Origin: a virus
Lineage: Duplodnaviria; Caudoviricetes
DNA: 46,303 bases
IMG/VR virus record: IMGVR_UViG_3300046710_000414
Span: 1-46,303 of that record
Reading direction: 5' to 3' (one strand)
The notes below the pieces were generated by a model. That model did no database searches and was not told the DNA's origin. It saw only the letters and a program-made list of their open reading frames with translations. The position numbers and the translations under genes are program-made. Shown piece after piece: positions 1,739 to 46,303 of this stretch (the first letter of the stretch is position 1; each line of letters starts with the position of its first letter).

Positions 1739-2095
1739 GTGAAAAATTCTATTTCTGATGAAATTCGTAAGTTGGCTTCCCTTATAGAACGAGACAATAC
1801 TCCTGATAATACTGCTATCGGTGATCATAAGATGCTTGAGGATAGTAGTATGGAACAGCCCTTAAGAGAAGCAAAGAAAGTGGTAAAACCTAAGCAGGTG
1901 GAAATTGATGGGGTAACTCCTACAGCACCTTCTCAACAGAGACGCCCTCGGAAGCAGCCCGGTCATAAGAATAAGTGGAATGAAGATACTAAGACAGATC
2001 TTATGAAGGATTATATGACGGAATATCGTGCAGAGGGTAAAGATAAAGAAGTTAACGGTCCTAAGAGTACATATAAGAAAAAGTTAAAAGTTTAA
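1739..2095 (+). CDS. Hypothetical protein (putative head-associated)
   Basis: ORF track; 3 nt after the portal stop; N-terminal SDEIRKLASLIE motif. Confidence 0.7.
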   Translation: MKNSISDEIRKLASLIERDNTPDNTAIGDHKMLEDSSMEQPLREAKKVVKPKQVEIDGVTPTAPSQQRRPRKQPGHKNKWNEDTKTDLMKDYMTEYRAEGKDKEVNGPKSTYKKKLKV

Positions 2096-2113
2096 AATAA
2101 GGAGAGTTGTGAT

Positions 2114-2422
2114 ATGCCTAAGCCACCTAAAGAGCTAGTTAAGCAGATAGAAATAGTCTCAGAAGTTATTGAGAGTGTGAATACTCTAATTGATAATAAA
2201 AAAATTAAGGTTGAAAATTATGGTAAGGATTTTCTTGAACCTCTCACAAAGATTCGATCAAAAGCTATGGAATTACGTAATGATCTGGAGCTTTTCAAAA
2301 GTTATATGGAGAGGGCTTTAACAGAACAATACTATAGCAGTGATAGATTTGCAGGTGACGTTAGTAAAGAATCTGCAAAGAGTGTAATTACTAAGTTTCT
2401 GTCCAGTAATACAGATTTTTAA
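2114..2422 (+). CDS. Hypothetical helical protein
   Basis: ORF track; AAGGAG RBS upstream. Confidence 0.75.
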   Translation: MPKPPKELVKQIEIVSEVIESVNTLIDNKKIKVENYGKDFLEPLTKIRSKAMELRNDLELFKSYMERALTEQYYSSDRFAGDVSKESAKSVITKFLSSNTDF

Positions 2423-2436
2423 TAATGTATTAATAT
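2420..2436 (+). promoter_or_regulatory. Putative late promoter motif TAATAATGTATTAATAT
   Basis: Variant of the 17-nt motif recurring in intergenic regions. Confidence 0.6.
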
Positions 2437-2480
2437 TAGAATAATAATAACTTATCGTTGTTCTATCTATTGAGGAATTT

Positions 2481-2897: not shown

Positions 2898-2932
2898 TAA
2901 TAATTTGACATAGAGTTTTAAGGAGGATTAGA

Positions 2933-3529
2933 ATGAATAAGTCTGTTATCATGAGTGAGATTGAGTCTACCCGTCGTAAATTAGCAGCACTTCAAGTGCT
3001 TGCAGGTGAAGAAGAGAATGAAGAAGAAACTGCTGATGCTACTGAAAAAGAAGCTGGTAAAGCAGACATGATTAAATGCCCCGACTGTGGATCAAAAGTC
3101 TTGAAAGCTACTGGTTATTGTCTTAAATGTAAGAAAAAAATCAAGGGTGATGACAAGAAAAAAGAAGAAGTAAAGAAGGACGACAAGAAAAAGAAAGAAA
3201 AAGAAGCTGCTGCAAAAGTAGCAGAAGCTCTTGATGAAATAGCGGGTCTTTTGGAATCTCAAAATAATCCTGAACTTACAAAGCTTGCTTATGAACTTGA
3301 TAGAGTCTCTGATGTTCTCGAAGGTAGAAAAGAAGCTTCTACTCTTGAGAGTGATAGTGATGAGCCTTACATGAAACAATACTTTCATGCTGGTGCTCGG
3401 GAGACAGACAGTGATGAATCTTATATGAAAGAATTTAATACGGATATTAGCACTGAGCTTAAAGATAAGTTTCAGAAAAAACAACTTGGTAAGGATGCTT
3501 CCAGTCTCCCTTACCAGATAGTTAAATAA
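2933..3529 (+). CDS. Zinc-ribbon and charged protein (putative internal head protein)
   Basis: CPDCG...CLKC; Lys/Glu-rich; AAGGAGG RBS; ALDEIAGLLE and LAYELDRVSDVLE helices. Confidence 0.75.
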   Translation: MNKSVIMSEIESTRRKLAALQVLAGEEENEEETADATEKEAGKADMIKCPDCGSKVLKATGYCLKCKKKIKGDDKKKEEVKKDDKKKKEKEAAAKVAEALDEIAGLLESQNNPELTKLAYELDRVSDVLEGRKEASTLESDSDEPYMKQYFHAGARETDSDESYMKEFNTDISTELKDKFQKKQLGKDASSLPYQIVK

Positions 3530-3547
3530 GGTGAAAGGATAGTAATC

Positions 3548-4105: not shown

Positions 4106-4123
4106 CTGTAAGGAAACGTAAAA

Positions 4124-6985
4124 ATGGCAATGCTTAAGTTTGGACATGCTGCAGTAGTTAATAAGGTTGTCTGCCCGGGTAAATGGGTGGACAACGTTGT
4201 TTCTAAAGGTCGTATTGTTATAGCAAAAAATGTTGTAGCTCAGTTTGATCCTTCAAAATGGTTGCTTAGTCACGTCTCTATAATGGCTTCCGTAGATGTG
4301 GATAGAGCTGACTCATCGGATCCTAAAAGTAATTATCTAATCAAACCCGAGTATTCAATTTTTGTAAATAACAACGGTGACAGTTGGGAGACTGAATTAT
4401 TAAAGATAGCTTCAAAGAGTTTTCTCGGGGCAGATAATTTTTGTTTTGTCGCAGGTACACGGGTACTAATGGCAGATGGTACATATAAAGCTATAGAACA
4501 GATTACTGAGGGTGAAAGAGTTATAAATCGTAAAGGTGAGATAGGAAGAGTAACAAAGACTTTTAAACATCAAGCGGATAATTTAGTTGAGATGTCAGGT
4601 TTGAATATTCTTTCTAGGAAATTGTGTGTAACTAAAAATCATCCTTTTTGGGTATACCATGCCCGTGAAACTTGCCCAAAGACAGGTAATCCAAATTTTT
4701 TTGATAAGAGCGCAAATTTTTGTTTATTGGATACTTGGACAGGTTTCTCTGTTGGAGTGCATAGGGCTTCAGGTGAAGTTTATCCAAGAGGTATAACTCC
4801 AGGATGGAAAGAAGCTGGAGATATTGATTCTAATAGAGATTTCTTTACACATCCTGTATCTTTAATTGAAACTCCCAATGATGAAATAAATGAGGATAGA
4901 GCGGAATTAATCGGTTGGTTTCTTGCTGAAGGTTACTATGATAATAAAAATATCTTTTCTGATGAAGAGTCCGGGATAACCTTTGCTCTTGGTAATGATG
5001 AAACGGATGTTGCTGAAAGGTTATCTTATCTATTGATAAAAGAATTTGGAAGTACTTTTAGAATAGATTGCAAACCAAGACTATATGAAACTCAATCAGG
5101 GTCATATAGCTTATCTATTAGTAATAAGGAAGTAGCTCAGTTTTTTAAAAAATGGTGTGGCAAATATTCATGGGCTAAAAGATTGCCTGAAGAAGCAATG
5201 TGGCTTCCTAAAAAATTACAGGCTATAATAATTAAGCATTGTATTAATGGGGATGGCTGTGGGGAGCATATCTCAAGGGGTTATAGTTTAGAACTTAAAT
5301 CACAGGCATTGATTCAACAGATTAATGGTATGTTTTGGAGAATGGGGATACTACCTACTTATAGAGAAGTTGGAGTACTACCAAGATATACAGACTATGA
5401 ATTAATAGATGGGTACGAAGTTTTTACTGACCCCCTAACTAATAAGAAATCAAGACCAGGATATTTTTTACGGATATCTACAAGGGATTCTAAAAAGTTA
5501 AACGATATCGTTGGTTGTTCTGATAATAGGATTTCTGATAGAGTATCTAAAAAAATAACTCATACATTTGAAGATGAAGGTAATAGCTGGATCATATCTA
5601 AAATAGATAGTGTAAAGGACATAAAGGGTATTTTTGACGTTTATAACATAGAGGTTGAAGGGGATAATTCTTATGTTGCTGAAGGTGTAACAGTGCATAA
5701 CTGTGAACACGTGCAGATTCCGGAATTATCAAAAGGCAAGGTTATTGATATGGCACTAAGATCAGTACCCTTTGCAAAAGACGTGGATGGTAATGATCTT
5801 ACTTCTATGTATGTAGATATTCTTATTGCTACTAATAAAAAGCATACCGATTTGGTTAATAAGATTCAATCAGGTGAGTATAGTGCAGTTAGCATGGGTT
5901 GTTTGATAAAATATAGTATTTGTACACAATGTGGTTGTGTAGCTGAAGATGAATCTCAATCCTGTAAGCACATAAAGTATTTCAAGGGTAACTATTTTTA
6001 TGATAAGAATGGTACAAAGAGGATAGTCGCTGAATTATGCGGGTCAGCTGATGATCCTGAGAGCTGTAAATTTATTGATGCAAGTTGGGTACGTAAACCT
6101 GCTTTTGAAGGTGCAGTACTTCATAAAGTTCTTCCTTGTGATTTTGATGTATCTGAAAAAATTCAAAAAGCTGTAGCTATGCCAGGTTTTGAATATACTC
6201 CCGGGATGTACTTGAAATCCGCATCTCAATCAGCAAAAGAAATCGTAAGAGATCTCGAAGCTGCTGAGGGTGATGCTCCAGCTCCTCCAGCTGATGACTT
6301 TAGCTTTCCTGAGGCCCCTGCTGAGTCAGGAAAACCTCTTACGGTAGATACTCCTCCAGCGGAAGGTGCAGCTCCTCCTGTGGATTCTATGGGTGATCCT
6401 GCAGCAGCTCCTGGTGGAGATCTTGGTGGTTTAGGTGGCGCTCCCGCAGCAGCTCCGGAACCTCAGATAGAAGAGCCTAAAGAGGATGCTACAGTCAATG
6501 AAGTAAAGGATATGGTAAAGAGACAACTCCTTAATCAGATCCGTAGAGAGATAATGAAAGAACAGGCTAAAGAAGAGGGTGGAGATAGTGGGCGTCCTAC
6601 TATCGATGAGACTTCTACAAATGATAATTTAGTGAGTAAATCTGCTAATTTTAGTAAGGTTTTAGTTTCTGCTAAAAATACAAAAAATGATCGATTATAT
6701 AATGGTCTTATGATTCTTTCTAATATTAAAAATTGGAAGCAATTTAAAAAGTATGGATATACCCGTGATGATGTTTTAGGGATATTGCACTTTATAGATA
6801 AGAATGCTTCTAATATTCCTGTCGGTACAGATGCAATTAAGACACTATCCAGAGTCAAACTTGGGTCAACAGGAATGGTGCCATTTTTCACAAAGATGAT
6901 AGTTGAGATAGGTCGCAAGCCAAGTCAGAGTGAATGTAAAAAGTTAGCTTCGTGGGCTAAGATTTTATCCCAATTTGAAGAGTAA
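4124..6985 (+). CDS. Prohead (capsid maturation) protease with intein and scaffold-like C-terminus
   Basis: Joined extein reads FLGADNF-CEH...GKVID...AVSMGC...ASWVRKPAFEGA, the His/Ser/'S-x-V-x-x-P-A' pattern of HK97-type prohead proteases; position before scaffold and MCP. Confidence 0.8.
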   Translation: MAMLKFGHAAVVNKVVCPGKWVDNVVSKGRIVIAKNVVAQFDPSKWLLSHVSIMASVDVDRADSSDPKSNYLIKPEYSIFVNNNGDSWETELLKIASKSFLGADNFCFVAGTRVLMADGTYKAIEQITEGERVINRKGEIGRVTKTFKHQADNLVEMSGLNILSRKLCVTKNHPFWVYHARETCPKTGNPNFFDKSANFCLLDTWTGFSVGVHRASGEVYPRGITPGWKEAGDIDSNRDFFTHPVSLIETPNDEINEDRAELIGWFLAEGYYDNKNIFSDEESGITFALGNDETDVAERLSYLLIKEFGSTFRIDCKPRLYETQSGSYSLSISNKEVAQFFKKWCGKYSWAKRLPEEAMWLPKKLQAIIIKHCINGDGCGEHISRGYSLELKSQALIQQINGMFWRMGILPTYREVGVLPRYTDYELIDGYEVFTDPLTNKKSRPGYFLRISTRDSKKLNDIVGCSDNRISDRVSKKITHTFEDEGNSWIISKIDSVKDIKGIFDVYNIEVEGDNSYVAEGVTVHNCEHVQIPELSKGKVIDMALRSVPFAKDVDGNDLTSMYVDILIATNKKHTDLVNKIQSGEYSAVSMGCLIKYSICTQCGCVAEDESQSCKHIKYFKGNYFYDKNGTKRIVAELCGSADDPESCKFIDASWVRKPAFEGAVLHKVLPCDFDVSEKIQKAVAMPGFEYTPGMYLKSASQSAKEIVRDLEAAEGDAPAPPADDFSFPEAPAESGKPLTVDTPPAEGAAPPVDSMGDPAAAPGGDLGGLGGAPAAAPEPQIEEPKEDATVNEVKDMVKRQLLNQIRREIMKEQAKEEGGDSGRPTIDETSTNDNLVSKSANFSKVLVSAKNTKNDRLYNGLMILSNIKNWKQFKKYGYTRDDVLGILHFIDKNASNIPVGTDAIKTLSRVKLGSTGMVPFFTKMIVEIGRKPSQSECKKLASWAKILSQFEE
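4442..5701 (+). mobile_element. Intein (420 aa) with LAGLIDADG homing endonuclease
   Basis: Starts CFVAGTRVLMADG; block B VTKNHPF; LIGWFLAEG and CINGDG motifs; ends VYNIEVEGDNSYVAEGVTVHN|C. Confidence 0.95.
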
Positions 6986-6997
6986 AAAACTTTTTTA

Positions 6998-7014
6998 TAA
7001 TAATCTCTTAATAT
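6998..7014 (+). promoter_or_regulatory. Putative late promoter TAATAATCTCTTAATAT
   Basis: Exact copy of the consensus, upstream of the scaffold-decoration-MCP unit. Confidence 0.75.
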
Positions 7015-7082: not shown

Positions 7083-8246
7083 ATGTCTCGTAATCGTTTG
7101 ACTAACAGATTAGCTTCGGATATGAAGTCAAAACCAGGTGCCCAAGTAGAAGATAAGGGTTCCGGAATTGACAATGATGTTTTTGATATGAATGATACTG
7201 GACACAGCAAGAATAATCCAAGTGTCGGTGAATATGCTAAAGGTGACCCTGAAGCATGGAATGAAGGCGTTAACAAAGACAAAGTGAATAAAGACGATTC
7301 TAAACGTGAAGAGACTGGTCATGCTCCTCTTATCGATAAACATGCTGCTCAGGAAGCTATCGCAAGTGCCCGCAGACTTGAAGAGAAAGCTGTCAAAGCT
7401 ATTATTGCTTCACAGAGAATGCTCCCAGGTGCTACCGATGAGATTATTGAGAAACAGGCTGGTATTCTTATGCATCTTCCTGAAGAGGGTCTTAATGCTA
7501 CTCTCGCGAATCAAGAAGGTCTTGCTCAAATGATTGCAAAGGCTGCTGCTTCATCTTCTGAGGAAGAAGATGAGGAAGAAGATGCTTCGTCAAAAGACGC
7601 TGGTGTTAAAAAAGATGAAGAGGAAGAAGACGCTGCATCAAAAGACGCCGGTAGTAAAAAAGATGAAGAGGAAGAGGATGCTTCATCAAAAGATGCTGGA
7701 AAGAAAAAATTAGCTGCTCTAAAGAGAAAAGTAGCAGAGATTGAAAAGAAGCTTGAAGATGAAGAAGAAGCTTCATCAAAAGATGCTGGTAAAAAAGAAG
7801 AAGAGGAAGAAGCTTCATCAAAGGATGCTGGAAAGAAAAAAGAAGAAGATGAAGAGGAAGATGCTTCATCAAAAGATGCTGGTCAGAATGATCCTCATTA
7901 CTTTGATCTTAAGAAAAAGAAAGAAAAACTTGCCAACTTGATAAAACAAGCTGAAGAGCTTGAAAAAGAAGTTGACAAGGATGAAAAGAAAAAAGAAGAA
8001 GAGGAAGAAGAAGGAGAAGAAGTTGAAGCTTCTCACAAAGGTAAAAAAGAAGAAGATGAGGAAGAAGCCACATCAAAAGATGCAAGTCTTCTTGATCAGA
8101 TTTTCAGTGGTGTTATGCCTTCTCCTATTAAGAAGGGTGCTTCAAAACTTTCTGGTATGGTTAAGAAAGAAGCTTCTTCAAGTAACTCCAGTGACCTATC
8201 CAGTCTATGGTCTACTGCTCCGGATGTAAGAGAAATTTTTAATTAA
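7083..8246 (+). CDS. Capsid scaffolding protein
   Basis: Between protease and MCP; highly charged coiled-coil/low complexity; AGGAGG RBS. Confidence 0.7.
   Translation: MSRNRLTNRLASDMKSKPGAQVEDKGSGIDNDVFDMNDTGHSKNNPSVGEYAKGDPEAWNEGVNKDKVNKDDSKREETGHAPLIDKHAAQEAIASARRLEEKAVKAIIASQRMLPGATDEIIEKQAGILMHLPEEGLNATLANQEGLAQMIAKAAASSSEEEDEEEDASSKDAGVKKDEEEEDAASKDAGSKKDEEEEDASSKDAGKKKLAALKRKVAEIEKKLEDEEEASSKDAGKKEEEEEASSKDAGKKKEEDEEEDASSKDAGQNDPHYFDLKKKKEKLANLIKQAEELEKEVDKDEKKKEEEEEEGEEVEASHKGKKEEDEEEATSKDASLLDQIFSGVMPSPIKKGASKLSGMVKKEASSSNSSDLSSLWSTAPDVREIFN
7561..8090 (+). repeat. Coding repeat E(n)-(D)A-S/A/T-S-K-D-A-G/S, 7 copies
   Basis: Six SKDAG and one SKDAS, each after a poly-Glu run (gcttcatcaaaagatgctgg variants). 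Confidence 0.9.
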
Positions 8247-8367
8247 ATAATATTCGATACCCATCTGTTAAAGTTGGGTATCAGTAGTAAAAAGATTGAT
8301 ATAAGATTTTTAACAGTATCTACCCGCCCCATAAGGGGATTGGGTTTCATTTAATAGGAGGTTTAAC

Positions 8368-9021: not shown

Positions 9022-9909
9022 ATGGAAGGACAGAATCAAATTTCCAATGAGCTAAAACAGCAGATCATTGGAGATTACATTAAGACTGCTTCTGGTCGTG
9101 CGAAACTCGCAGCGTCTATGATACAGCCTTTGCGTCTTCGTAGAGATTATACGTCAGTTGCACGTAAAGCTTTTCTCGTAGAGCAGCTCCCTGATGGTGC
9201 GCTGCCAATTTACGACAAAGATCCTAACGTTACAGCTTTCGTTGTCGGAGAAGAAGGTGAAAACATTTTGGCGATTACAAAACCTCGCCGTGTGATATTC
9301 CCTCTTTTCGAAATAGCATCAAACCCTGAACTGCCTTTGACACAGATCAAAGAACGTCGTTTTGACCTTATCGAACGCGCACAGGATTTGGCAAAAGCTC
9401 AGATCCAAGCTGCTGAAGATGCACGTGCCTTTGATGTTATGGATGCTGTTTCTCAGTTTGGTTTCGACAATCTTGGAAGTGCATATGTAAACGCACAGAT
9501 CAATGCTGTTGCGCCTCTTACACCTGCAAACTTGATTGACGCTTTCGCACGTATTGAGACTCATGATCTTCGAGTTGCTCGTATTTTCATGAACGCTCTT
9601 GACTTTGCAGATTTAAGAAAATGGGGACGTGATGTTCTTGATATTGAAACTCAAGGAACATTACTCAAGAGTGGTCTGCTTGGTACCGTTTGGGGTGCTC
9701 AGATCATTGTCAGCAGAAAAGTAAATCCTGGTTATGCTTATGTTTGCGCAGAGCCAGAATTTTTCGGTCGTATCCCCGTGAGAACCGAACTTACGGTTTT
9801 GTCAGCAGATGATCCCAAAGCAAGACGCATTGGATTTTCAGTGTTCGAGAACCTCGGAATTGGATGTCATAACCCACTTGCAATTACCAGGGTTAAAATA
9901 GCTAGATAA
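9022..9909 (+). CDS. Major capsid protein (HK97 fold)
   Basis: MIQPLRLRRDY...LPDGALPIYDKD...LFEIASNP...AQIQAAED...LGTVWGAQII resembles MCPs of large myoviruses (reminiscent of mycobacteriophage Bxz1-type MCP); high-expression codons; AAGGAGG favours ATG 9022. Confidence 0.9.
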   Translation: MEGQNQISNELKQQIIGDYIKTASGRAKLAASMIQPLRLRRDYTSVARKAFLVEQLPDGALPIYDKDPNVTAFVVGEEGENILAITKPRRVIFPLFEIASNPELPLTQIKERRFDLIERAQDLAKAQIQAAEDARAFDVMDAVSQFGFDNLGSAYVNAQINAVAPLTPANLIDAFARIETHDLRVARIFMNALDFADLRKWGRDVLDIETQGTLLKSGLLGTVWGAQIIVSRKVNPGYAYVCAEPEFFGRIPVRTELTVLSADDPKARRIGFSVFENLGIGCHNPLAITRVKIAR

Positions 9910-12941: not shown

Positions 12942-12947
12942 ATCGAA

Positions 12948-12964
12948 TAATAATACATTAATAT
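12948..12964 (+). promoter_or_regulatory. Putative late promoter TAATAATACATTAATAT
   Basis: Motif variant immediately after the terminator. Confidence 0.65.
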
Positions 12965-12977: not shown

Positions 12978-13694
12978 ATGATGACTATAAAAAGTACACC
13001 AATAGAACTTATTTTTCGTCTACGGAGAATTGCGGCAGATTTAGAAGAGCATAACCGTAACTCCACGATATCTTCGGGTATCAAAGAAATATACGGTATT
13101 GATGTAGACCATAAAGCTGATTCGGAATGTCTTCAAGCTTTGTATAGTAGCCTTCAAAGAATATCCCCTGAAATTGTAAAGATGTGTGGTATAAAATCAC
13201 TGTCATTTGAGGATTTAGGCCCCTCTAAAGAATTTTACCCGAATCATGGGAAATATGTTAATAATACTCTTATTATGAATGATCAACTACTTAAAGATCC
13301 CTCAATAATTATTGATCCGGATAATGAGTCTATAATAAATAAATTTGATCATACTCTTTATCATGAGCTTGGTCATGGTTGGGATGAAGCCCAGGGAGAA
13401 GATGGTGATCTATCCCTTAAAGATGATTGGTTGAAATTGTCAGGATGGTCAAAGTATCCAAAACCAGGATTTAAAAGGATACATATTCATGAGAAGGGTA
13501 CTCCTGAGGTAGTAGGAGATTATTATTATTCGCCATTTGCTCGATTTACAAGATTTTATGCAAAGAGATCTCCTTGGGAAGATTGGGCGGATAGTTTCTC
13601 ATATTATCTTGGAGGAGCTAAAAGCTACTTACCAAAAGAAAAAATAACATATTTTGATAAGCTTTTAAAGAAATATCTTAAGGGTGGTAAATAA
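12978..13694 (+). CDS. Zincin-like metallopeptidase
   Basis: HELGH (HExxH) and downstream YAKRSPWEDWADSF third-ligand motif. Confidence 0.75.
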   Translation: MMTIKSTPIELIFRLRRIAADLEEHNRNSTISSGIKEIYGIDVDHKADSECLQALYSSLQRISPEIVKMCGIKSLSFEDLGPSKEFYPNHGKYVNNTLIMNDQLLKDPSIIIDPDNESIINKFDHTLYHELGHGWDEAQGEDGDLSLKDDWLKLSGWSKYPKPGFKRIHIHEKGTPEVVGDYYYSPFARFTRFYAKRSPWEDWADSFSYYLGGAKSYLPKEKITYFDKLLKKYLKGGK

Positions 13695-14272
13695 TGAGTA
13701 TATTAGGTAAATTGAATAAGATTGCTAATGTTCTTAGTGAACGTGGTTTTGATAAAGAGGCTTCAGAGTTAAGGGATATCAAGGAAGCCACTATTACAGG
13801 GTATCCTTTTTTTGGAGAAACCAAACATACCCCACGGATGTTAAATCAACCTGGTAAAGCTTTTCATGAACCTACTGATCCTAATATTAAGCCTTACGAA
13901 AAGGGAGATTTTGTTATTGAGCTGAATTCTTCTACTGGTAAAGAAGAGTTGATGATGTGGGATGGTAAGAGATTAGTTCCTAAAAAAGAAATTGAGAATA
14001 TGGTTGAAACAGGGGCTATGAGAGAAGAGCGATTGATTGGTCCATATAATAAAGCTACTCCTGATGTAAAAGCACAGATGAGACCTTTATTAGAATATGC
14101 AAAGAGTAAAGAAGCCTCAGGTAGTCTTCCTCCAAAGAATAGAATTGAATCATATTATCCTGCTGAGCGATTAGCAAATATTAAGATTTGCTTGGAAAAG
14201 CGGGGATACACATTATTGGCTAAAAAGTTAAAAATTGCTATGGATGAATATACAAAAACAGTTTCAGAATAA
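13694..14272 (+). CDS. Hypothetical protein (putative internal head protein)
   Basis: TAATG coupling; LNKIANVLSERGFDKEASEL and LANIKICLEKRGY helices at both ends. Confidence 0.75.
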   Translation: MSILGKLNKIANVLSERGFDKEASELRDIKEATITGYPFFGETKHTPRMLNQPGKAFHEPTDPNIKPYEKGDFVIELNSSTGKEELMMWDGKRLVPKKEIENMVETGAMREERLIGPYNKATPDVKAQMRPLLEYAKSKEASGSLPPKNRIESYYPAERLANIKICLEKRGYTLLAKKLKIAMDEYTKTVSE

Positions 14273-14295
14273 TATATAAAATATTGGAGAGCATT

Positions 14296-14547
14296 ATGAA
14301 TGGTTTATTCAATGATCCTGATGGCAAAGTAAGCATGATGCGTCTGATGTCTTTTGTAGTTTGTGTGGTTATTATGGCTATTTTTGCTGCACATAATATT
14401 GTTTCTATGGCAAAAGGCGGAGGCTTTGTATCATTAGGCCCTTCAGAGGCATTATTGATCGCGGGCGTCTTAGGTGCAAAAGCTGCCCAAGCTTTTTCGG
14501 AAAATAAGAGGATTCCTGACCGTGATTCACCTAAAACAGAGGAATAA
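14296..14547 (+). CDS. Small two-TM membrane protein, possible holin
   Basis: GKVSMMRLMSF followed by two hydrophobic stretches and a charged tail; GGAG RBS favours ATG 14296. Confidence 0.55.
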   Translation: MNGLFNDPDGKVSMMRLMSFVVCVVIMAIFAAHNIVSMAKGGGFVSLGPSEALLIAGVLGAKAAQAFSENKRIPDRDSPKTEE

Positions 14548-14549
14548 AG

Positions 14550-14747
14550 ATGCCTGATCCTAACAAGTATGATGGAGACAAGCAAAAATTTATGGGTGAT
14601 TGTATGCATCAATGTGTCCGCATTGAAAAAAAGGATAGAGATCAAAGTATCGCTCAATGTTTAAATATGTGGAGAGATAAGGATAAAAAGAAAAAGTGCG
14701 CTTCAGATATTATTAGAGAACTGTCCCGAGAATTACTTAGAATATGA
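14550..14747 (+). CDS. Small hypothetical protein
   Basis: MPDP...KFMGDCM...QSIAQCLNMW; coupled to the next gene by ATGA. Confidence 0.7.
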   Translation: MPDPNKYDGDKQKFMGDCMHQCVRIEKKDRDQSIAQCLNMWRDKDKKKKCASDIIRELSRELLRI

Positions 14748-16024
14748 TTCGTTTAATTACTTCCTATTTATCAGATAAAGATATTATTAAGGCTCCAAAG
14801 TCTGGTATTCCTGTTATTTTTCTTGGTGGGGATTGTCAGGATAACAGTTGGCGTAAAGAAATCGAGAAAGAATTTGGGGAAGACTTATACCTATTAGATC
14901 CTTTTGATAGGAATTATGATCCAGCAAAGAATACTTATAAAGAAGTAGCTGGGATGATAAATTCAGATTATGTTATTTTCTATAATGGTGGTAAGCAATC
15001 GGATAGGGAAAAGAAATTTCTTGAACTTATAGGTAGACGTAATGATTTAGTCAAGGAATTTGACAATATAGATAGTGTAAAAAAGTTTTTAAATAAGCTA
15101 AAGGAAAAAAACTTGAAAAGTATTAGCTCAAAAATAAGAAAGTGCGCGGATACACTTTCAAAAATGGCTATGCCTTTCGTATCTCCAGATAAAGGTATTT
15201 CAAAGGCTATAGATTTTAAATTTGAACGCTTGGATGCAGATTCCATCCCAAAAGTAGTGAATGATATTTTCTCTGGCAAGACTATAAGAATTCCAAAGTA
15301 TGATGAAGCTACTACAGGATTTAATTCATTTAATATTAAAAGTCTCTCTGATCCTGATAATTCTTTGGCATTTCTTAAGAATTATAAAGATATTGAGCAC
15401 GTAAAAAAAACATTTTCTAATCGCAATCCAGAATCAATTATCTTCACTTATGATGTACCTTCTAGCACTTATGTTGATGTACGTACAAAAGTTGCAAAAA
15501 CTGGAGTGAAGTACGATTATTCATGCACTAAAATCAATTTACCTGATGTCTTGTCTAAATCTATTATAAAATGGGGTATGGATAATGTACCGGGTAATAA
15601 ATTATATGTAGAAGGGGATAATTCAAAAGGTCGAGAGGATGATATCCATGTAACAGTGCTTTATGGGATTACAGATGATTCTCCTGTAAGGATTGCAAAG
15701 ATTATTGGAGAGATTAAACCTTTTGAAGTGCGTCTTGGTTTGATTAATGCATTTAAGGATAAAGAAGAATATGATGTTCTTAAGATTGAAGTAGAAGCTG
15801 GAGATCTTGAGAAATTGTATTATAATCTCGTAAAAAAGATAAAAAATGAAAGCACATTCCCGACATACAATCCCCATGTTACTGTCGCATATGTTAAGAA
15901 AGATTCCATGGACAAATTTATAGGGGATGAGACTTTTAAAGGTAAGACGTTTAAAGTAAATAATATAGTATTTTCTAATGGTAAAGATAGGGATAATGAA
16001 AAAAAGTTACCATTGAATATATAA
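14744..16024 (+). CDS. Nucleoside deoxyribosyltransferase-like domain fused to 2H phosphoesterase (Acb1/T4 57B-like)
   Basis: N-terminal IFLGG...SWR...LDP...SDYVIFY...S-x-x-E; C-terminal REDDIHVTVLYG (His 15647) and YNPHVTVAY (His 15875), two HxT motifs. Confidence 0.75.
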   Translation: MIRLITSYLSDKDIIKAPKSGIPVIFLGGDCQDNSWRKEIEKEFGEDLYLLDPFDRNYDPAKNTYKEVAGMINSDYVIFYNGGKQSDREKKFLELIGRRNDLVKEFDNIDSVKKFLNKLKEKNLKSISSKIRKCADTLSKMAMPFVSPDKGISKAIDFKFERLDADSIPKVVNDIFSGKTIRIPKYDEATTGFNSFNIKSLSDPDNSLAFLKNYKDIEHVKKTFSNRNPESIIFTYDVPSSTYVDVRTKVAKTGVKYDYSCTKINLPDVLSKSIIKWGMDNVPGNKLYVEGDNSKGREDDIHVTVLYGITDDSPVRIAKIIGEIKPFEVRLGLINAFKDKEEYDVLKIEVEAGDLEKLYYNLVKKIKNESTFPTYNPHVTVAYVKKDSMDKFIGDETFKGKTFKVNNIVFSNGKDRDNEKKLPLNI

Positions 16025-19799: not shown

Positions 19800-19976
19800 A
19801 TGGAAAGAGTGAATTTTCATCTTACCGATGGTGAGATACATGGTCTTCGAGTAATATCTGAACTTACGGGGGTACCTCGTGCTGAGATTATAAGACGTGC
19901 AATTGATGACTATATTAATAGAAAGAAATTTGAAGGTTTTACAGGACTTGAAAATATACGTGAGGTGTACGCATGA
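19800..19976 (+). CDS. Ribbon-helix-helix (CopG-like) DNA-binding protein, 58 aa, absent from the ORF track
   Basis: MERVNFHLTDGEIHGLRVISELTGVPRAEIIRRAIDDYINRKK...; AGGAG RBS; ATGA overlap with the next gene. Confidence 0.85.
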   Translation: MERVNFHLTDGEIHGLRVISELTGVPRAEIIRRAIDDYINRKKFEGFTGLENIREVYA

Positions 19977-28347: not shown

Positions 28348-29244
28348 ATGTCAGTAGCATACCAAACGGGACAAACTCTTACCCAAGAAGATTTGAAAAT
28401 ATTAATCCGGGATAATATCGGAAATTTGGTAGATCCCTATTATATTAGATTTTCTATATTTGATTATACTACAGGTGTTGAAGTTCTTATTGGGCCTCCA
28501 GATCAAATCCCCGCTACCATGGGGGTAGGTCAATATTATGTGAATATTACCATACCCTTAGATGCAAATATCGGAGACTGGCTAGTACGATGGAATTTTA
28601 GGGAAACTTCAGGATCTCCTACAATTCAAGTTGTTCAGGAATTTAATGTTGTTGCTAAAGATGTAAAGACAGATATTACTAGTGTTGATTCTGAGCAGTT
28701 GCTCGTAAGAAGGTTAAGAATTATGCTAAGGGATAATAATCCCGATCGTAATTATAGATTTCGTCCCCCGGCGAGTGAAAAGTTCATACAAGCACAAGCT
28801 CAGGTATTTGGTTACGTGTGGGAAGATTATGAACTCTATGAGTATCTACTTATGGCTGTTGATTATTTCAATACGGCTCCTCCGGTGACAGGTATAACAT
28901 TATTTCAAACTCCGGATAGATGGAGAGCTGTGATTCTTCTTAAGTCAGCATCACTGGCTTGCGGGGCTCTTGCTTTGAATTGGATAGTTGATGAGTACGA
29001 TTATAGCATCAGTGGAGTGTCTCTTAATATAGAGAAATCTTCTAAATATCAATCCATGAAAGAGTCCTTTGAAGGTGAATACGATAAACTTCTTGATCAG
29101 GCTAAGAGATCTATAAAGATTGCTATAGGACTAAAACAACCTCGTTACGGTATAGGAATTAGCTCGGCCCTGGGGCCCTATTCGCGCCCGGGCGTCCAAT
29201 CACGCAGAAATTTTGTTTCCGGAGCAAGAGGCGGCTGGTCATAA
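28348..29244 (+). CDS. Putative head-tail adaptor (neck) protein with Ig-like N-terminus
   Basis: VRRLRIMLRD...WEDYEL...YSISGVSLNI helical connector pattern; GAGG RBS favours ATG 28348. Confidence 0.55.
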   Translation: MSVAYQTGQTLTQEDLKILIRDNIGNLVDPYYIRFSIFDYTTGVEVLIGPPDQIPATMGVGQYYVNITIPLDANIGDWLVRWNFRETSGSPTIQVVQEFNVVAKDVKTDITSVDSEQLLVRRLRIMLRDNNPDRNYRFRPPASEKFIQAQAQVFGYVWEDYELYEYLLMAVDYFNTAPPVTGITLFQTPDRWRAVILLKSASLACGALALNWIVDEYDYSISGVSLNIEKSSKYQSMKESFEGEYDKLLDQAKRSIKIAIGLKQPRYGIGISSALGPYSRPGVQSRRNFVSGARGGWS

Positions 29245-37096: not shown

Positions 37097-37151
37097 ACTT
37101 TTTATTTTTAGTTCCTTTTAAGAATTTTATTCTATAAGAAATCTTTTGTTA

Positions 37152-37168
37152 TAATAATCTCTTAATTT
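37152..37168 (+). promoter_or_regulatory. Putative late promoter TAATAATCTCTTAATTT
   Basis: 16/17 match to the consensus. Confidence 0.7.
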
Positions 37169-37215
37169 TATATATAAATCTATCAGAAGTTCTTTTGCCT
37201 CAAAGGAGTCTTTTC

Positions 37216-38094
37216 ATGGGATCGAATATGAAACTTGCCGCTGAAAGATTACTTAAGATCGCTGATGATCTTGAGAAGGAAGCTGCGGATAATACATTCT
37301 TTGTTTGTGATGGATGTAATCATACATCGTCATTACTTGATATTAATAAAAAGCGTAAGATTGCTGGTAAAAATCATAGTGTTAAACGTATCGCTAATGT
37401 TACAGTGAATGATGCCGTAACATGTCTGGCTTGTGGTGGTAAAATGTCTTATGTTCCTACAGACTCAAGTGAAAAATACTATGTAGAGTCTGATGATACA
37501 GAAGATACTGGTGCGGATATATTCGAACCTGTTGATGATCAGGGAACTGATAAGGGGGATGAGACTTCTGATGTAGTCGAACCTAAAACTGATGAACCTC
37601 CTGTTATTGATGAAACTCTTCCCATGACTGCAGTGAATCCTGAAGAAGATAAAGCTGTTTCTGAAACTCCTGAAAATGAAGAAACTCCTGATGAAGATAA
37701 AATTGAGGAAACTCCTGAAATTTCAGATTATGATGGAACTCCTGATGAAGAACAGAAATCTGAAGGTGACGAAACTTCTGATAAGGATGAGACACCCGAA
37801 ATAGCTGAAACTCCAATGGAAGATGGAACTCCTGAGGGTGATGTAGCTCCAAAGGATGAAGAAATCCCCGAGGATCAAGGTGCAATTGAAGGTGAACCCG
37901 TCGTAGAAGAAACAGTCCCTGAGGATGAGCCTGTAGGAGAGGGTGAATCTATAGGAGATGGAACTTCTGAGGAAGAAGAACCTGTAGAGGAAAAAGGCGT
38001 AGAAATACCGAAAAAAAATGTTCCTAAATTTGAAAAGATTCCAAAGGAAGCTCAAGATGCTTTTTGGAAATCGGTTGCAAAATATTCTATTTAA
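37216..38094 (+). CDS. Zinc-ribbon + very acidic disordered protein (putative internal head protein)
   Basis: AERLLKIADDLEKEA; CDGC...CLACG; E/D/T/P-rich tail; AAGGAG RBS favours ATG 37216. Confidence 0.75.
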   Translation: MGSNMKLAAERLLKIADDLEKEAADNTFFVCDGCNHTSSLLDINKKRKIAGKNHSVKRIANVTVNDAVTCLACGGKMSYVPTDSSEKYYVESDDTEDTGADIFEPVDDQGTDKGDETSDVVEPKTDEPPVIDETLPMTAVNPEEDKAVSETPENEETPDEDKIEETPEISDYDGTPDEEQKSEGDETSDKDETPEIAETPMEDGTPEGDVAPKDEEIPEDQGAIEGEPVVEETVPEDEPVGEGESIGDGTSEEEEPVEEKGVEIPKKNVPKFEKIPKEAQDAFWKSVAKYSI

Positions 38095-38834: not shown

Positions 38835-39845
38835 ATGGCAGTTGGACTTGACATAGGGACATGTTTCTTGGTAAGTGCTACAAAAGATATTAAAAATGAA
38901 AGTGCACCTGTGGAGATTAAATCTATTCGGGACGCATTTTTAGATGTGGAAGCAGACCAATCTATTTTGAATATGCTTAAGATGTCAAATGTTTCTTACG
39001 TGCAGGAAAAAGATTTTATTTACATAGTAGGAGAACCTGCATTAAGTGTATCTAATCTTCTTAAGAGAGAAGCTAGAAGACCTTTAAATCAAGGAGTGAT
39101 ATCTTCTGGAGAACATGATGCTGAGAGGATGTTAGTAATACTTTTAAAAAATATTCTTAGTTCTCCTAAAGTTGAGAATGAATCAGTATTTTTTTCCGTA
39201 CCGGCGAAGTCTATAGATAAAGATATGGACATTATCTATCATCAAGCAATGTTCCAAAAGATTATAGAGTCTTTTGGTTATAAAGCTACTGCTATGAATG
39301 AAGCAGCTGCAATTGTTTATGCAAATGGAAGTTCTGATGGTTTTACAGCTCTTGCTTCATCTTTTGGTGCAGGTATGGTAAATACCGCTTTGGTTTTCCA
39401 GACTATGGTGGGTATGTCATTTTCAGTTTCACGTAGTGGTGATTGGATTGATCAATCTGCAGCTAAAGCTGTGGGTAGTACTGCTACACGTCTGATGTCG
39501 ATAAAGGAAAAAGGTGTAAATCTTCTTGATCCTAATGAAGGTGATTCAAAGCAACTTAGGGAAAGAGAAGCTATCGTAGTTTACTATAAAAATCTTATAC
39601 ATTATGTGATAGATAGCATAAAGAGAGAATTCAAAAAGGATAATGGAAAGATTGAGCTTCCTGACCAGATCCCATGGATTATTAGTGGTGGTACTGCTAA
39701 AGCTAAAAATTTTCTTGAGTTCTTTAAACAAGAGTTTGAGAAGGAACGAGATAACTTTCCTATTAGCATATCTGAGATAAGAATGGCTAGTGATCCTCTT
39801 GGAGATGTTGCCAAGGGACTTCTTATAGCTGCTATGAATGATTAA
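38835..39845 (+). CDS. Actin-like ATPase (FtsA/MreB/ParM superfamily)
   Basis: Phosphate-1 GLDIGT, connect-1 NEAAAI, phosphate-2 SFGAGMVN, adenosine ISGGTA, connect-2 VAKGLL. Confidence 0.85.
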   Translation: MAVGLDIGTCFLVSATKDIKNESAPVEIKSIRDAFLDVEADQSILNMLKMSNVSYVQEKDFIYIVGEPALSVSNLLKREARRPLNQGVISSGEHDAERMLVILLKNILSSPKVENESVFFSVPAKSIDKDMDIIYHQAMFQKIIESFGYKATAMNEAAAIVYANGSSDGFTALASSFGAGMVNTALVFQTMVGMSFSVSRSGDWIDQSAAKAVGSTATRLMSIKEKGVNLLDPNEGDSKQLREREAIVVYYKNLIHYVIDSIKREFKKDNGKIELPDQIPWIISGGTAKAKNFLEFFKQEFEKERDNFPISISEIRMASDPLGDVAKGLLIAAMND

Positions 39846-42566: not shown

Positions 42567-42601
42567 TATCCATGGTGTGTAAGATATACACCATTAAGTG
42601 G

Positions 42602-42618
42602 TGATAATCTATTAATAC
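42602..42618 (+). promoter_or_regulatory. Putative late promoter TGATAATCTATTAATAC
   Basis: 14/17 match, after a hairpin at 42572-42594. Confidence 0.6.
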
Positions 42619-42662
42619 GAATTCTACTAATAGATCATATATAACATAAGATAGGAGTATTT

Positions 42663-43142
42663 ATGCCGTTGTATGAATTTAAGTGTACGGGCTGTGGTCA
42701 TGAGTTTGAAGAACTATCACCATATAAAGATAGGGATGCGGAACAATCCTGTAAGAGATGTGGGGCGGTTTCAGAACGAAAAGTGGCTTCTTTATTCGGA
42801 GTGCATAGTGACTTAAATCCTAAAACAGATACGATAGTTACTCGTAAAGAGATTGATAAAGTCGTAGGTAAAGTATCTGAAAAAAGATGGGAAGGTTACG
42901 ACGAGAGATGGAAGAGCCGGTATGAGGCTAGGCAGCAGAAGAGATGGAAGGGTAAGACTCCTGAGCAGGTTAATATCCCCAAGGATCAGGATGGTAAATA
43001 TAGCCCGATAATGCACTTGGGGGATAATAAGGAACGAACTTTAAGAAAAGAATATTCAGAAGCATTACAGGAGCATAGATCAGATAGAGTAAAAAAGGGT
43101 ATACCACAGTTTGAATCATCTGGAGCAATTACAGAAGGTTGA
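42663..43142 (+). CDS. FmdB-family zinc ribbon protein (second copy)
   Basis: MPLYEFKCTGCGHEFE...CKRCG. Confidence 0.85.
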   Translation: MPLYEFKCTGCGHEFEELSPYKDRDAEQSCKRCGAVSERKVASLFGVHSDLNPKTDTIVTRKEIDKVVGKVSEKRWEGYDERWKSRYEARQQKRWKGKTPEQVNIPKDQDGKYSPIMHLGDNKERTLRKEYSEALQEHRSDRVKKGIPQFESSGAITEG

Positions 43143-43281
43143 TATTGCATGTCCTGGTGTCGTTGGTAATACTCTTCTAATATACACATTAAATAATATG
43201 AATAAATCTTATATAAAGAATTTTAAAAATATAAATAAGATCAATGAAAAAATATTTACGGTATAAAAAGGAGAACGACAC

Positions 43282-46215
43282 ATGGCAATAGGACCTTTAG
43301 AAAGTTTCGTATTTCCAGGTGTATACGCTAGAACTAACACTGAAGCTGCTGGAGCTAATGCAGCTGGTGATATACGTATACCAGCCTTTGTGGGCGTATC
43401 CGCTGAAACTGTTCGTATTGGCAACTTTGAAATGGTAAGGGGTTCATCAGCTATTTCTGATAATCTTATACTTGACGAAGATGTCAGTACTCAATTCACG
43501 GGTATGGAAAATACATTTGTAGTCGAGAATAAACCAATCGTAACTGGTGATGGTAGTGGTAAAGTAGCCACTACTCCTGGAAGTGTTATAGTTTCAATTA
43601 ACGGATTTAATGTTGCAGTTAACTCTGTAAATGGCCTTACTGGTGAGGTTACTCTTGTTCAGATCCCCGCAGTGGGTGATGAAGTAAGAGCGAATTATTA
43701 CTTCAAACGTCGTGATACCTTTATTGAAAATGAGGACATTTCTGTCCAAGTAGATGGTATTATTAATAGCTTCAAAGTAAAAAGCGATCGTATTGTAAAG
43801 GGTGATAATGGTGGAAGATCAGCAGTTGATTCAGACATCAATGGTACGACTACTATTTTATTTAACCCCGATCCATTAATCATCGGTGATGAATATGAAC
43901 GTCAGGTAAGAGTATTTCAGGTTAAAGTAAATGGTGTAGAAGTCCCAGTTACGCATCTTAATGGTTCAGATGCAATGTTCGTACTTCAAAATACTCCTGC
44001 GGTCTCGTCAGTTTTAACAGTTACTTACTTCACAAATACCTGGCAGGATACATATGATATTCTTCCGGCATCAATTGTTGAGCAACTGGTTAAGGTTGGT
44101 TTAAGTCAAGATACTAATGACTTTTCAATTGGTGATGATTGTGTGCTTGCAGGTAATAATAGAATTCATTGGGGAAATTCCTTCAATGCTGCTCAAGGTT
44201 TGTTTACCGCAGGATCTGTACCTCTTATAGATAATGTATCCGTATCACTTACCGATACACGTGTATATGGAAGAGTTGCTTCACCAGCAAGTCCTTATAC
44301 AGTTGGTGGGGTTATCCAAGTTAATACTAACGGAGAACAGATCAATCTTGCAGGTAATAAATCCTTTGCACTTCCTACGATGCCAGTTGATGGATCTGGG
44401 TTAGGTGTCTGGACAGAAGATCCCGCAAACATTATTGCTTATATTGGAACTGATTGGGCAGCAGCTTATACAGCTGGACCAAAATTCGTTTCAAAAATAT
44501 CTGGCAATATGATTACATTGACGGTGTCTCCTGATCAACCTACTGAAGAAATAGTTTTCGTAACATATTTCGAAAATCTTCTTCTGGATGATAAGTGGAC
44601 AATGACCAATAAAGTACCTGGTGGTGCAGGAATTGGTAAGTATACTATAACGTCAAGAGTCAGTGGTACTGCACTTGAGGTTAAATATGTCAGTGGGACA
44701 GTTTCTCCAATTTACTCTGGTTCAGGTACCCCTAATTTTCAAATTGATCCTCTTAAGGGATCGGTTGAACGTGTAATATTTACCTTTGATGGTGCAGGTG
44801 CCTTTACAGTTACTTCCCTTCTTGGTACAGGATTCACACTGCCTGGAAGAACTGGTTCAGTTACTGCATATAATCAAAATATTGGTTATTGTGGTAAGAC
44901 ATACGTTGATCCTATTACTGGATTACGAATTACTTTTTCTGGTGATACCGGAACTTTTAATCCTGGTGCAGGTACATTAGTAAGATATGATATAGGTGAT
45001 CCTACTGTGTCAGATGCCACACAAAAACTTTACATTACCGCTTCAGCAAGTAATGTTAGAGTAATTCCTGGTATCAATTTGGCAGTTCCTACAACAAGCG
45101 GTGGAACACCTGATAATACTGATGATACTGTGATCATTGATACTTATGTAAAATCTGGTAATGAGCCAGCAGTTGGTGATTTGTATTATGTTTCCTTTGA
45201 TAAGGTGAAAACAGATTATACAACACGATTCTTGACTAACATGAGAGATGTTACAAAGTATTATGGTCCTATGGACATTAATAATAAGCTGACTGTAGCT
45301 GCTAACTTAGCATTTTTAAATGGTGCTCAAGCAGTGGCCCTGAAGCAGATTAAACGTAGTGCTAATGGTACGGATGCTTCTGTTGCAGATTATATCTCAG
45401 GTATTGATGCTTTCAATGAACCTTTACCTAATGGTTTGAGACCTTCATTAATGCAACCTCTGACAACTAATTCAGAAGTTATAAGTTACCTCAAGACTTC
45501 AAATGCTATACAGTCAAGTATCCGGTATAAGAATGAGAGAACAAGTATCTTTGGTTTTTCAGTAGGTACGACCTCGGATCAAGTTATTCAAATGGTCCAG
45601 AATCTTAAAACTGAGAAACTCACTCCTATTTATCCTGATGGAGCGATTATAGGTATCGTGGATGCATATGGGAATGAAGTGGAATATGTTGTTGATGGTT
45701 CAATAATAGCTGCTGCTGTTGCTGGACGAGATGTATCTCAAGTTTCTGACATAGCGACTCCTCTGACCAATTCTACAATTGTTGGATTTAAGAGACTATA
45801 CCGGAGATTGGATAGCGTTAATGCAGCTCTTGTTGCTAATGCTGGGTGTACAGTTCTTGAAGAACAGGCTCCTGTTATAAAGATTCTTTTCTATCTGACA
45901 TCAGATACTTCAACAGCTTTAACGAGAGATCCTAGAATAGTAGAAGTTAAGCACTTTGTTCAGCAGGGTATTAGAAGATCTCTTGATAGATTCATTGGTT
46001 CTAAGAATCTTCCAAAAATGCAGTCTCAGGTCAGAGATTCTGTTGGGTCGTATTTTAAGTCACTGAAGCAAAAAGAGCTCATTGTTGATTTTACAGGTAT
46101 TAACGTAACTCAGAATCAACAAGATCCTAGTACTCTTGATGTAGAGGCATATTACAGCCCAGTATTTCCTTTGAACTGGATTGTAGTGACTTTGAATCTG
46201 AGACAGAGCCTTTAA
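43282..46215 (+). CDS. Tail sheath protein
   Basis: N-terminal FPGVY...IPAFVG; LAFLNGA; C-terminal LDRFIG...DPSTLDVEAYYSPVFPLNWIVVTLNL. Confidence 0.92.
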   Translation: MAIGPLESFVFPGVYARTNTEAAGANAAGDIRIPAFVGVSAETVRIGNFEMVRGSSAISDNLILDEDVSTQFTGMENTFVVENKPIVTGDGSGKVATTPGSVIVSINGFNVAVNSVNGLTGEVTLVQIPAVGDEVRANYYFKRRDTFIENEDISVQVDGIINSFKVKSDRIVKGDNGGRSAVDSDINGTTTILFNPDPLIIGDEYERQVRVFQVKVNGVEVPVTHLNGSDAMFVLQNTPAVSSVLTVTYFTNTWQDTYDILPASIVEQLVKVGLSQDTNDFSIGDDCVLAGNNRIHWGNSFNAAQGLFTAGSVPLIDNVSVSLTDTRVYGRVASPASPYTVGGVIQVNTNGEQINLAGNKSFALPTMPVDGSGLGVWTEDPANIIAYIGTDWAAAYTAGPKFVSKISGNMITLTVSPDQPTEEIVFVTYFENLLLDDKWTMTNKVPGGAGIGKYTITSRVSGTALEVKYVSGTVSPIYSGSGTPNFQIDPLKGSVERVIFTFDGAGAFTVTSLLGTGFTLPGRTGSVTAYNQNIGYCGKTYVDPITGLRITFSGDTGTFNPGAGTLVRYDIGDPTVSDATQKLYITASASNVRVIPGINLAVPTTSGGTPDNTDDTVIIDTYVKSGNEPAVGDLYYVSFDKVKTDYTTRFLTNMRDVTKYYGPMDINNKLTVAANLAFLNGAQAVALKQIKRSANGTDASVADYISGIDAFNEPLPNGLRPSLMQPLTTNSEVISYLKTSNAIQSSIRYKNERTSIFGFSVGTTSDQVIQMVQNLKTEKLTPIYPDGAIIGIVDAYGNEVEYVVDGSIIAAAVAGRDVSQVSDIATPLTNSTIVGFKRLYRRLDSVNAALVANAGCTVLEEQAPVIKILFYLTSDTSTALTRDPRIVEVKHFVQQGIRRSLDRFIGSKNLPKMQSQVRDSVGSYFKSLKQKELIVDFTGINVTQNQQDPSTLDVEAYYSPVFPLNWIVVTLNLRQSL

Positions 46216-46260
46216 TTAAGAACAACAGTAGAAAACAACTATTACAAGGAGATTTATATT

Positions 46261-46303
46261 ATGGATCGTATAGCATTAGCAAAAAGATTGGAGAGCTTAT
46301 CAA
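46261..46303 (+). CDS. 5' fragment of next gene (MDRIALAKRLESLS...)
   Basis: AAGGAG RBS then ATG; runs off the window. Confidence 0.65.
   Translation, partial: MDRIALAKRLESLS

Follow-up and report, generated by a model that had tools for sequence, protein, structure and literature searches.

The stretch analysed here, the whole 46.3-kb record IMGVR_UViG_3300046710_000414 (46,303 nucleotides; hereafter the window), comes from an uncultured large phage and carries head and tail genes of a large myovirus, including those for the portal, an intein-bearing prohead protease, a scaffold-position protein, the capsid protein and the tail sheath. A short amphipathic helix, here called the tag, recurs in proteins of this stretch and is the subject of this analysis. 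The capsid protein of the window is 74% identical to that of LR745208.1, 48% to that of Tunturi_5, 41% to that of phage G and 28% to those of cluster C mycobacteriophages. Two close IMG/VR relatives were identified, G001 (467 kb, near-complete) and G002 (470 kb, complete); further genomes and capsid-gene loci are cited under our handles (G and L numbers). The capsid gene was also present on 4 contigs of metagenome-assembled genomes from three different lineages, and these contigs appear to be mis-binned. Open reading frames (ORFs), named below by their first nucleotide (nt), were called with our own longest-ORF script on single tiles, so that genes at tile edges and in some GC-rich regions were missed or mis-called. 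No Rfam match and no tRNA were found in the window.

The features that bear on the tag are collected in Table 1. The conserved head-cluster protein 2933 comprises a zinc ribbon (nt 3077-3130), a lysine/glutamate-rich linker, the tag hairpin and an acidic repeat tail. The protease, whose PHROG match is a head maturation protease, has a conserved L-x-K-A site at the end of its protease domain. This may be a cut site specific for Ala, as in assemblin-like proteases and comparable to the release site of herpesviruses; no sequence match to this protein was found in the PDB, and its model reached a predicted local distance difference test score (pLDDT) of 32.5. The scaffold-position protein 7083 has seven S-K-D-A repeats, a conserved helical domain and a C-terminal motif. 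In the modular protein 14744, PF13563 scored above its cut-off and Acb1 (PF23474, E 1.5e-5) below it; the NDT-like domain (PF15891) was seen below cut-off in three orthologs, with no hit in the window copy. The Peptidase_Mx match of the zincin-like protein 12978 is weak (E 0.008).

Table 1. Position of the tag and of associated features in the window (last row: phage G, JN638751.1)
Feature	Position	Strand	Evidence
Portal protein, 5'-truncated, starting in an apparent intein	2..1735	+	phrog_16240 portal, E 5e-22
Weak tag-like helix, portal C-terminus	1691-1726	+	9.7-12.8 bits
Single tag helix, N-terminus of ORF 1739-2095	1754..1789	+	rank 5 of 14,099; kept in G008 ortholog
Putative late promoter-like site upstream of 2481 and 2933	2419..2436	+
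Conserved head-cluster protein, proposed core anchor	2933..3529	+	orthologs; hairpin in relatives' loci
Tag hairpin of 2933, two pseudo-repeated helices	3221..3322	+	AlphaFold pLDDT 96.4
K-x-A-S site just after the 2933 hairpin	3329-3340	+
Prohead protease with LAGLIDADG intein (about 4442-5701)	4124..6985	+	phrog_18299, E 8e-7; Hint and LAGLIDADG hits
K-x-A-S candidate release site of the protease (putative cleavage)	6209-6226	+	retained in 5 of 8 aligned orthologs; alignment ends earlier in the remaining 3
Promoter-like site before 7083	6997-7014	+
Putative scaffold protein, acidic	7083..8246	+	position and composition
Major capsid protein, phage G/Tunturi_5/cluster C mycobacteriophage type	9025..9909	+	phrog_2522, E 1e-53
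Late-promoter-like site heading tagged run 12978-16024	12947..12964	+
Zincin-like protein, HExxH 13362-13376, N-terminal tag helix 13011-13046	12978..13694	+	rank 4
Unannotated protein, N-terminal hairpin 13703-13780, degenerate second hairpin 14162-14239	13694..14272	+	seed HMM (G001, G005), E 9.5e-5
Weak tag-like helix, C-terminus of ORF 14550-14747	14703..14738	+	rank 241
Modular protein: NDT-like domain, tag helix 15125-15160, unassigned domain, Acb1-like 2H phosphoesterase	14744..16024	+
Promoter-like site before 37195	37151-37168	+
Zinc-ribbon protein with acidic tail, N-terminal tag helix 37240-37275, then K-x-A 37276-37287	37195..38094	+	rank 2
Start of conserved gene after tail sheath, first helix of divergent hairpin	46261..46303	+	orthologs
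Late-promoter-like sites, first nt	2419, 6997, 12947, 19733, 26020, 28086, 37151, 39927, 42601, 43166	+
Phage G leader genes, examples	11937, 28218, 35181, 178671, 244460, 254625, 388147

The tag consists of an amphipathic helix of 12 residues that occurs either alone or in duplicate, the latter forming a predicted hairpin of about 32 residues. This longer module was found with a hidden Markov model (HMM) built from eight seeds of G001 and G005, and consists of two similar helices with the approximate consensus L-D-x-I-A-x-x-L-E-x-x-G-x-x-x-x-A-x-x-L-D-x-I-S-x-x-L-E. AlphaFold predicts a hairpin (helices H2-14 and H19-35) with a pLDDT of 96.4. A fold search over 48,161 chains returned generic helical hairpins only (best Z 6.2, none at 8 or above), a PDB sequence search gave nothing below E 0.5, and three viral clusters at 0.81-0.83 in the ESM Atlas are a lead only. 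Its hydrophobic columns occupy heptad positions a, d and e, and those at e are small residues, as in antiparallel bundles. A second subclade has the single-helix form, from residue 6-8, at the start of 10 genes in G006 and some 8 in G004, and similar helices also lie inside acidic proteins adjoining the scaffold.

Nine peptides had been quoted in the sequence-only reading as instances of a helix of the form (L/I)-x-(K/R/E)-(I/L)-A-x-x-L-(E/S), located there by gene starts rather than peptide starts. All nine were found in the named genes, beginning at nt 1760, 3227, 3293, 13017, 13709, 14709, 15131, 37246 and 46276, but the literal pattern fits only four of them (the first helix of 2933 and those of 12978, 13694 and 37195) and no other peptide among 44 window proteins; in 500 shuffles it occurred 0.03 times on average and once at most. 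A 12-column profile was derived by taking 275 helices from library hairpins without a BLAST hit to window proteins. Among 14,099 sequence windows it ranked helix B of 2933 first, 37195 second, helix A of 2933 third, 12978 fourth, 1739 fifth, 14744 ninth and 13694 fourteenth, with 14550 at position 241 and 46261 at 943. The ranks of 37195, 12978, 1739 and 14744 are free of circularity; those of 2933 and 13694 are partly affected by it, since the search alignment included both proteins. Five real sequence windows reached 12 bits, against 0.26 after shuffling and none after reversal. The hydrophobic moments of eight examples lie between the 83rd and 99.8th percentiles and that of 46261 at the 65th, and the profile scores are not due to generic amphipathicity, since the 474 windows of equal amphipathicity in 8 non-structural window proteins all stayed below 10 bits (maximum 7.3). 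Among 120 homologs of 12978, a helix of at least 10 bits is N-terminal in 49 and lies elsewhere in 2.

Several of the nine examples need to be read differently. The two peptides of 2933 are both present, yet they are the halves of one hairpin, and 13694, quoted for a single helix, actually bears a hairpin as well. The example in 14550 is at background and unsupported alone; its counterparts in L006 and L009 form one gene with 14744, with tag-like helices at the module junctions. The ORF at 46261 stops after 14 codons at the contig end, and its orthologs, which follow the sheath gene and precede the next conserved tail gene, extend into a divergent hairpin.

The hairpin is a constant companion of the capsid gene. 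Of the 29 loci that extend 7 kb or more upstream of that gene, 28 have the hairpin there, and in the 29th (L060) it lies in a frame suppressed by the gene caller, which brings the count to 29 of 29. The carrier in the subclade of the window is the 2933 ortholog, encoded between portal and protease; the other subclade has the hairpin at the end of the gene just before the scaffold (e.g. L041, L053, L059 and L078). In L053, a zinc ribbon resembling that of 2933 bears an N-terminal single tag. Within the window, the scaffold-position protein, the protease and the capsid protein lack the tag, which is present on the 2933-type protein, a putative core component that we propose as the core anchor.

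A profile search of 1.84 billion proteins gave 1,206 clusters at E 0.001 or below; the strongest single-hairpin matches reached E 1e-11. Of these clusters the best 150 were inspected: 127 have a full hairpin, one is truncated at its N-terminus and the other 22 are long repeat proteins (TPR in both cases scanned), so that 1,206 is an overcount. With the hairpin masked, the 127 proteins fall into 76 families, the largest of which (20 proteins) is the conserved head-cluster protein. Their 148 hairpin copies are N-terminal in 77 cases, C-terminal in 39 and internal in 32, with one or two units per protein. In line with the sequence-only reading, the helix sits at termini or domain junctions on differing cargo. 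Pfam matches were obtained for 7 of the 94 non-TPR hits scanned (TMEM65, DUF3228 three times, NT5C, DUF4468 and C39 peptidase). Fifteen of 64 profile-positive proteins from eight genomes also matched, including topoisomerase IB twice, DUF218, ChaB, a ferritin-like domain and zinc ribbons; two VWA proteins, an epimerase and a coiled coil among these fifteen are probable false positives. Overall, the tagged cargo includes topoisomerase IB, DUF218, DUF3228, ChaB, NT5C, C39 peptidase and the Acb1-like 2H domain. Real and mean shuffled hits at 16 bits were 22 and 0.8 in G001, 7 and 0.2 in G002, 8 and 0.2 in G004, 7 and 0.2 in G005, 9 and 0 in G006, 3 and 0.2 in G007, 4 and 0 in G008, and 0 and 0.2 in phage G; these counts are not independent, because training overlapped these genomes.

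The tag also moves as a unit. In four adjacent G001 genes its nucleotide identity is 63-72%, against 19-32% in the following 90 nt, and among 14744 orthologs its position shifts between modules. The cargo hairpin of G002 is closer to that of its own anchor (56%) than to G001 cargo (31%), and the cargo hairpins of G001, G005 and G008 form a subtype distinct from the anchors. In G001, tags occur on fast-changing genes 60-130 kb from the head cluster. Five of the eight tagged window genes (2933, 1739, 12978, 37195 and 46261) are conserved and syntenic, and for this reason may be core components rather than exchangeable cargo; the tag of 37195 is kept in the G001, G002 and G008 orthologs. The motif is real, lineage-wide and modular. 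As a separate observation, a single-helix tag precedes a topoisomerase IB catalytic domain at 29150-29902 of G006 and at 84808-85785 of G004.

The distribution of the hairpin among functional classes was analysed in G001, where 701 ORFs were called and the 214 untagged ORFs of at least 220 residues were compared with PHROGs. The non-structural set (n=53) consisted of 51 proteins by annotation plus two VWA proteins; one 2H protein annotated as 'RNA ligase' was left out because it is a 14744 ortholog with a weak tag. The hairpin was found in none of the 53 non-structural proteins and none of 9 tail proteins, and on 13 other proteins. Equal frequency in replication and metabolic proteins, which would have spoken against a loading signal, was not observed for the hairpin in this genome, so that this check does not refute the idea. 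A shorter terminal helix, (R/S)-V/I-x-x-(R/K/A)-(Y/F)-L, was seen on nucleotide and RNA-repair enzymes and is possibly a second tag form; its sites are the C-termini of 2114 and 28140 and the N-terminus of 17344 in the window, 161084, 164606 and 294369 in G001, and 172353 in G002.

Two further signals accompany tagged genes. A late-promoter-like motif, approximately (T/G)AATA(A/C)TCT(C/A)TTAATA, was found by eye in intergenic regions of the window, where it has 11 plus-strand matches (one inside the portal gene) and none on the minus strand; it also occurs upstream of the scaffold gene in relatives. A matrix built from the window and scaffold-upstream sites gave 18 sites in G001, some of them ahead of three outlying tagged loci, and a site lay no more than 5 kb upstream of 10 of the 13 tagged genes versus 6 of the 53 non-structural genes. 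The second signal is a K/R-x-A-S site outside the tag, with observed and expected numbers in G001 of 15 and 2.4 for head-core proteins, 8 and 2.2 for tagged proteins, 17 and 13.5 for non-structural proteins, and 3 and 1.9 for tail proteins. Counting one protein per family, K/R-x-A was present in 46% of the windows before the tag (n~37) and in 27% of those after it (n~70), versus a background of 10%. The promoter-like site, the flanking K/R-x-A and the hairpin on the head-cluster protein together fit a destination inside the head.

None of the cultured phages searched bears the tag, and none of 50,697 phage records matches the hairpin below E 2. In Tunturi_5, three helices reached 12 bits versus 11 in reversed sequences; a 50-kb stretch of ET08 has no convincing tag, and phage G has one weak copy, in gp11. 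Phage G (JN638751.1) has a different element: 23 proteins of 17 families start with a basic leader ending in K-x-A/S, which matched 24 of 9,646 N-terminal positions versus 4 of 132,592 elsewhere. Its bearers are effector-like in part and include a six-member ART-like family, NDT-like and SLOG-like proteins, a GNAT protein and four head-cluster genes. A similar leader opens three Tunturi_5 proteins (144708, 158840 and 225787), one of them an ART-PolyVal/GNAT/NUDIX polyvalent protein, and the leader of both phages resembles the scaffold N-terminus of the window clade. Since an NDT-like domain is also joined to the tag in 14744 orthologs, the leader backs, by analogy only, the reading of the tag as an address. 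Polyvalent proteins are predicted to be embedded in virions and injected (PMC9503650), and for phage G 55% of nucleic-acid-metabolism proteins are reported to be contained in the particles (PMC12484599).

Other observations were made in the head and tail region. Besides the protease intein, an apparent, truncated intein lies in the portal gene (2-316) and another within that of a large TPR-like glycosyltransferase (19973-25237); the lengths of protease and portal orthologs vary with inteins. The intergenic region between the scaffold gene and 8368 (8247-8367) has apparent inverted repeats, part of which recurs before the G001 capsid gene; it possibly forms an RNA structure and has no Rfam match. 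In L053 (8759-9822), two tandem paralogs of the decoration-position gene, 8368 in the window, precede the capsid gene. Directly after the window capsid gene (10122-12857) a LAGLIDADG endonuclease is fused to an N6/N4 methylase, and on the minus strand (29239-31317) a DUF7487 endonuclease is fused to a Mom-like domain. An actin-like protein (38835-39845; Pfam Volactin PF25216, E 4e-62) is encoded within the neck/tail region.

We consider it probable that the tag is an address for targeting to the prohead core, similar in its working to the capsid-targeting sequence (CTS) of phage T4 and different in form. Tagged proteins would be expressed late and would join the scaffolding core of the assembling prohead through the tag. 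Docking may take place through bundling of the tag with the 2933-type hairpin, by analogy with encapsulation peptides; this mode is preferred because the hydrophobic columns fit the heptad positions described above, although a basic patch on capsid or scaffold is an equally plausible partner for the conserved acidic surface residues. The prohead protease, once active, would cut the flanking K/R-x-A sites, and the folded cargo domains would stay with the DNA in the head, from where they may be injected and may act against host defence. The proposal of the sequence-only reading, a modular address for prohead loading, is partly supported, by the modularity, the absence from G001 non-structural proteins, the promoter-like and K/R-x-A associations and the head-cluster hairpin, but not as a description of all tagged genes, several of which are conserved and syntenic. 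A broader and more tentative view, possible but doubtful at present, is that the core of phage-G-like giant myoviruses is an encapsulation-peptide-like assembly in which an anchor and exchangeable effectors co-bundle, are cut at K/R-x-A and form an injected counter-defence arsenal, the address being interchangeable across the lineage (hairpin or helix here, basic scaffold-like leader in phage G and Tunturi_5).

Several results weigh against the address. Packaging, cleavage and binding are putative for every tagged protein, and the cultured relatives Tunturi_5 and phage G are without the tag proper. The tag is unequally distributed, with no more than about 4 tagged proteins in the complete G002 and a single hairpin in each of the fragments G009-G012. 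The count of 0 in 53 holds for the hairpin only, as two of the 53 (the VWA proteins) show a weak single helix; in addition, a PNK-like enzyme starts with a degenerate helix, and CCA-type and NT5C-like enzymes have the shorter terminal variant. These enzymes adjoin a tagged gene and represent additional cargo or else exceptions to the rule. Only 5 sites account for the 10 promoter-linked genes, and promoter-like sites also precede the non-structural window genes 19800 and 39969. In tagged proteins of G001, plain K/R-x-A shows hardly any excess (43 versus 35.1), and the motif frequently sits within the tag helix. A derivation of the tag from the helical domain of the scaffold was rejected (hhalign probability 0.2%).

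The explanation closest to the address is that the helix or hairpin is an oligomerisation module of a multi-protein scaffolding core, whose tagged members build or fill the core and are degraded without delivering cargo. Throughout the clade, the 2933-type protein, which is conserved, acidic and rich in K-x-A, bears the hairpin, five of eight tagged window genes are conserved and syntenic, and most library cargo lacks a Pfam match, all of which suits such a module; folded enzymes (topoisomerase IB, DUF218, NT5C, C39 peptidase, 2H phosphoesterase) and the fast-changing tagged genes far from the G001 head cluster do not, and we regard it as rather unlikely. It is improbable that the motif is merely an extended recognition site of the prohead protease, with head entry by other means. 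Many tag helices do contain K/R-hydrophobic-A, the hairpin loop is often K-x-A and the scaffold bears its S-K-D-A repeats, but the third position before Ala is K/R in only 66 of 123 helices, the Leu/Ile and Asp/Glu columns are better kept, the scaffold sites lie in acidic low-complexity sequence without a helix, and the hairpin is a confidently predicted fold.

Binding to a late non-virion partner (a host or phage adaptor, chaperone or protease), for instance as a single TPR-like hairpin, would not predict the link to the head-cluster protein or the head-type K/R-x-A-S sites, and no tagged protein matched a Pfam TPR family. About 22 of the best 150 profile hits are nevertheless long repeat proteins, TPR in both cases scanned, and cytoplasmic action is conceivable for some tagged enzymes; we hold this explanation to be very improbable. 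That generic amphipathic helices were chosen by eye is hardly credible, given the shuffle, reversal and amphipathic-window controls, the E-values down to 1e-11 and the DNA common to copies, even though only four of nine peptides fit the literal pattern, 14550 scores at background and, at 13 bits, reversed versus real counts are 10 versus 17 in G004 and 6 versus 6 in G007. Chance is refuted for the hairpin and the stronger single helices, and may account for 14550 and the weak helices in 2114 and the portal.

If the address reading is true, a folded, position-independent tag common to anchor and cargo would be a concrete mechanism for core sorting; the sorting of proteins into the phage scaffolding core is called unresolved even for T4 (PMC9958956). 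The injected proteome of uncultured huge phages would become readable from sequence, with many unannotated counter-defence candidates, and the tag might find use in loading proteins. With the phage G leader, the same address logic is testable in a cultured phage. In the literature searched (including the accessible parts of PMC8570332, PMC7824862, PMC10052503 and PMC12484599, with subscription journals and bioRxiv supplements outside the coverage), no description of the tag was found.

Among known systems, the T4 CTS is a short conserved peptide on diverse internal proteins, proposed to place them in the core and removed by the prohead protease; its function has been demonstrated, and its cargo counters host defence (PMC9958956, PMC3012670). 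Both elements consist of one conserved peptide on otherwise divergent proteins (here 76 families among 127 hairpin proteins). The CTS, however, has about 10 residues, is N-terminal and is reported as absent from other core proteins, whereas the present tag has 12 or about 32 residues, lies at either end or internally, sometimes twice, and is also on a conserved head-cluster protein; its function is deduced, that of the CTS shown. About 30 N-terminal residues of DarB of phage P1 suffice to package a reporter, tertiary structure being perhaps needed according to the authors, who found no consensus among Dar N-termini (PMC9024508). The present tag, by contrast, is common to at least 76 families, and P1 is unrelated.

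The tag resembles TPR (TPR_12, TPR_10) in being a helix-turn-helix of similar length with an A-x-x-L-x-x-x-G-x-x-x-E-A pattern and in profile cross-hits; TPR units form tandem 34-residue arrays, whereas the tag is one or two isolated units without a TPR family match. The P22 scaffolding protein has a C-terminal helix-turn-helix coat-binding domain, a helical hairpin of about 30 residues. A likeness to it is seen in L041, L053, L059 and L078, where the gene directly upstream of the scaffold ends in a hairpin, but here the conserved surface residues are acidic, the scaffold is without a hairpin and cargo proteins have copies. Encapsulation peptides of bacterial microcompartments (BMC) are short amphipathic terminal helices on unrelated enzymes, which bundle mutually and draw cargo into the shell (PMC4594438, PMC12339742). 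They are the closest model for how the tag might work, and the tag likewise places a terminal amphipathic helix (about 17 residues in BMC cargo) on enzymes. They differ in belonging to cellular organelles with BMC shells and no protease maturation, the shell here being the phage capsid protein, and no BMC family was found among 43 window proteins.

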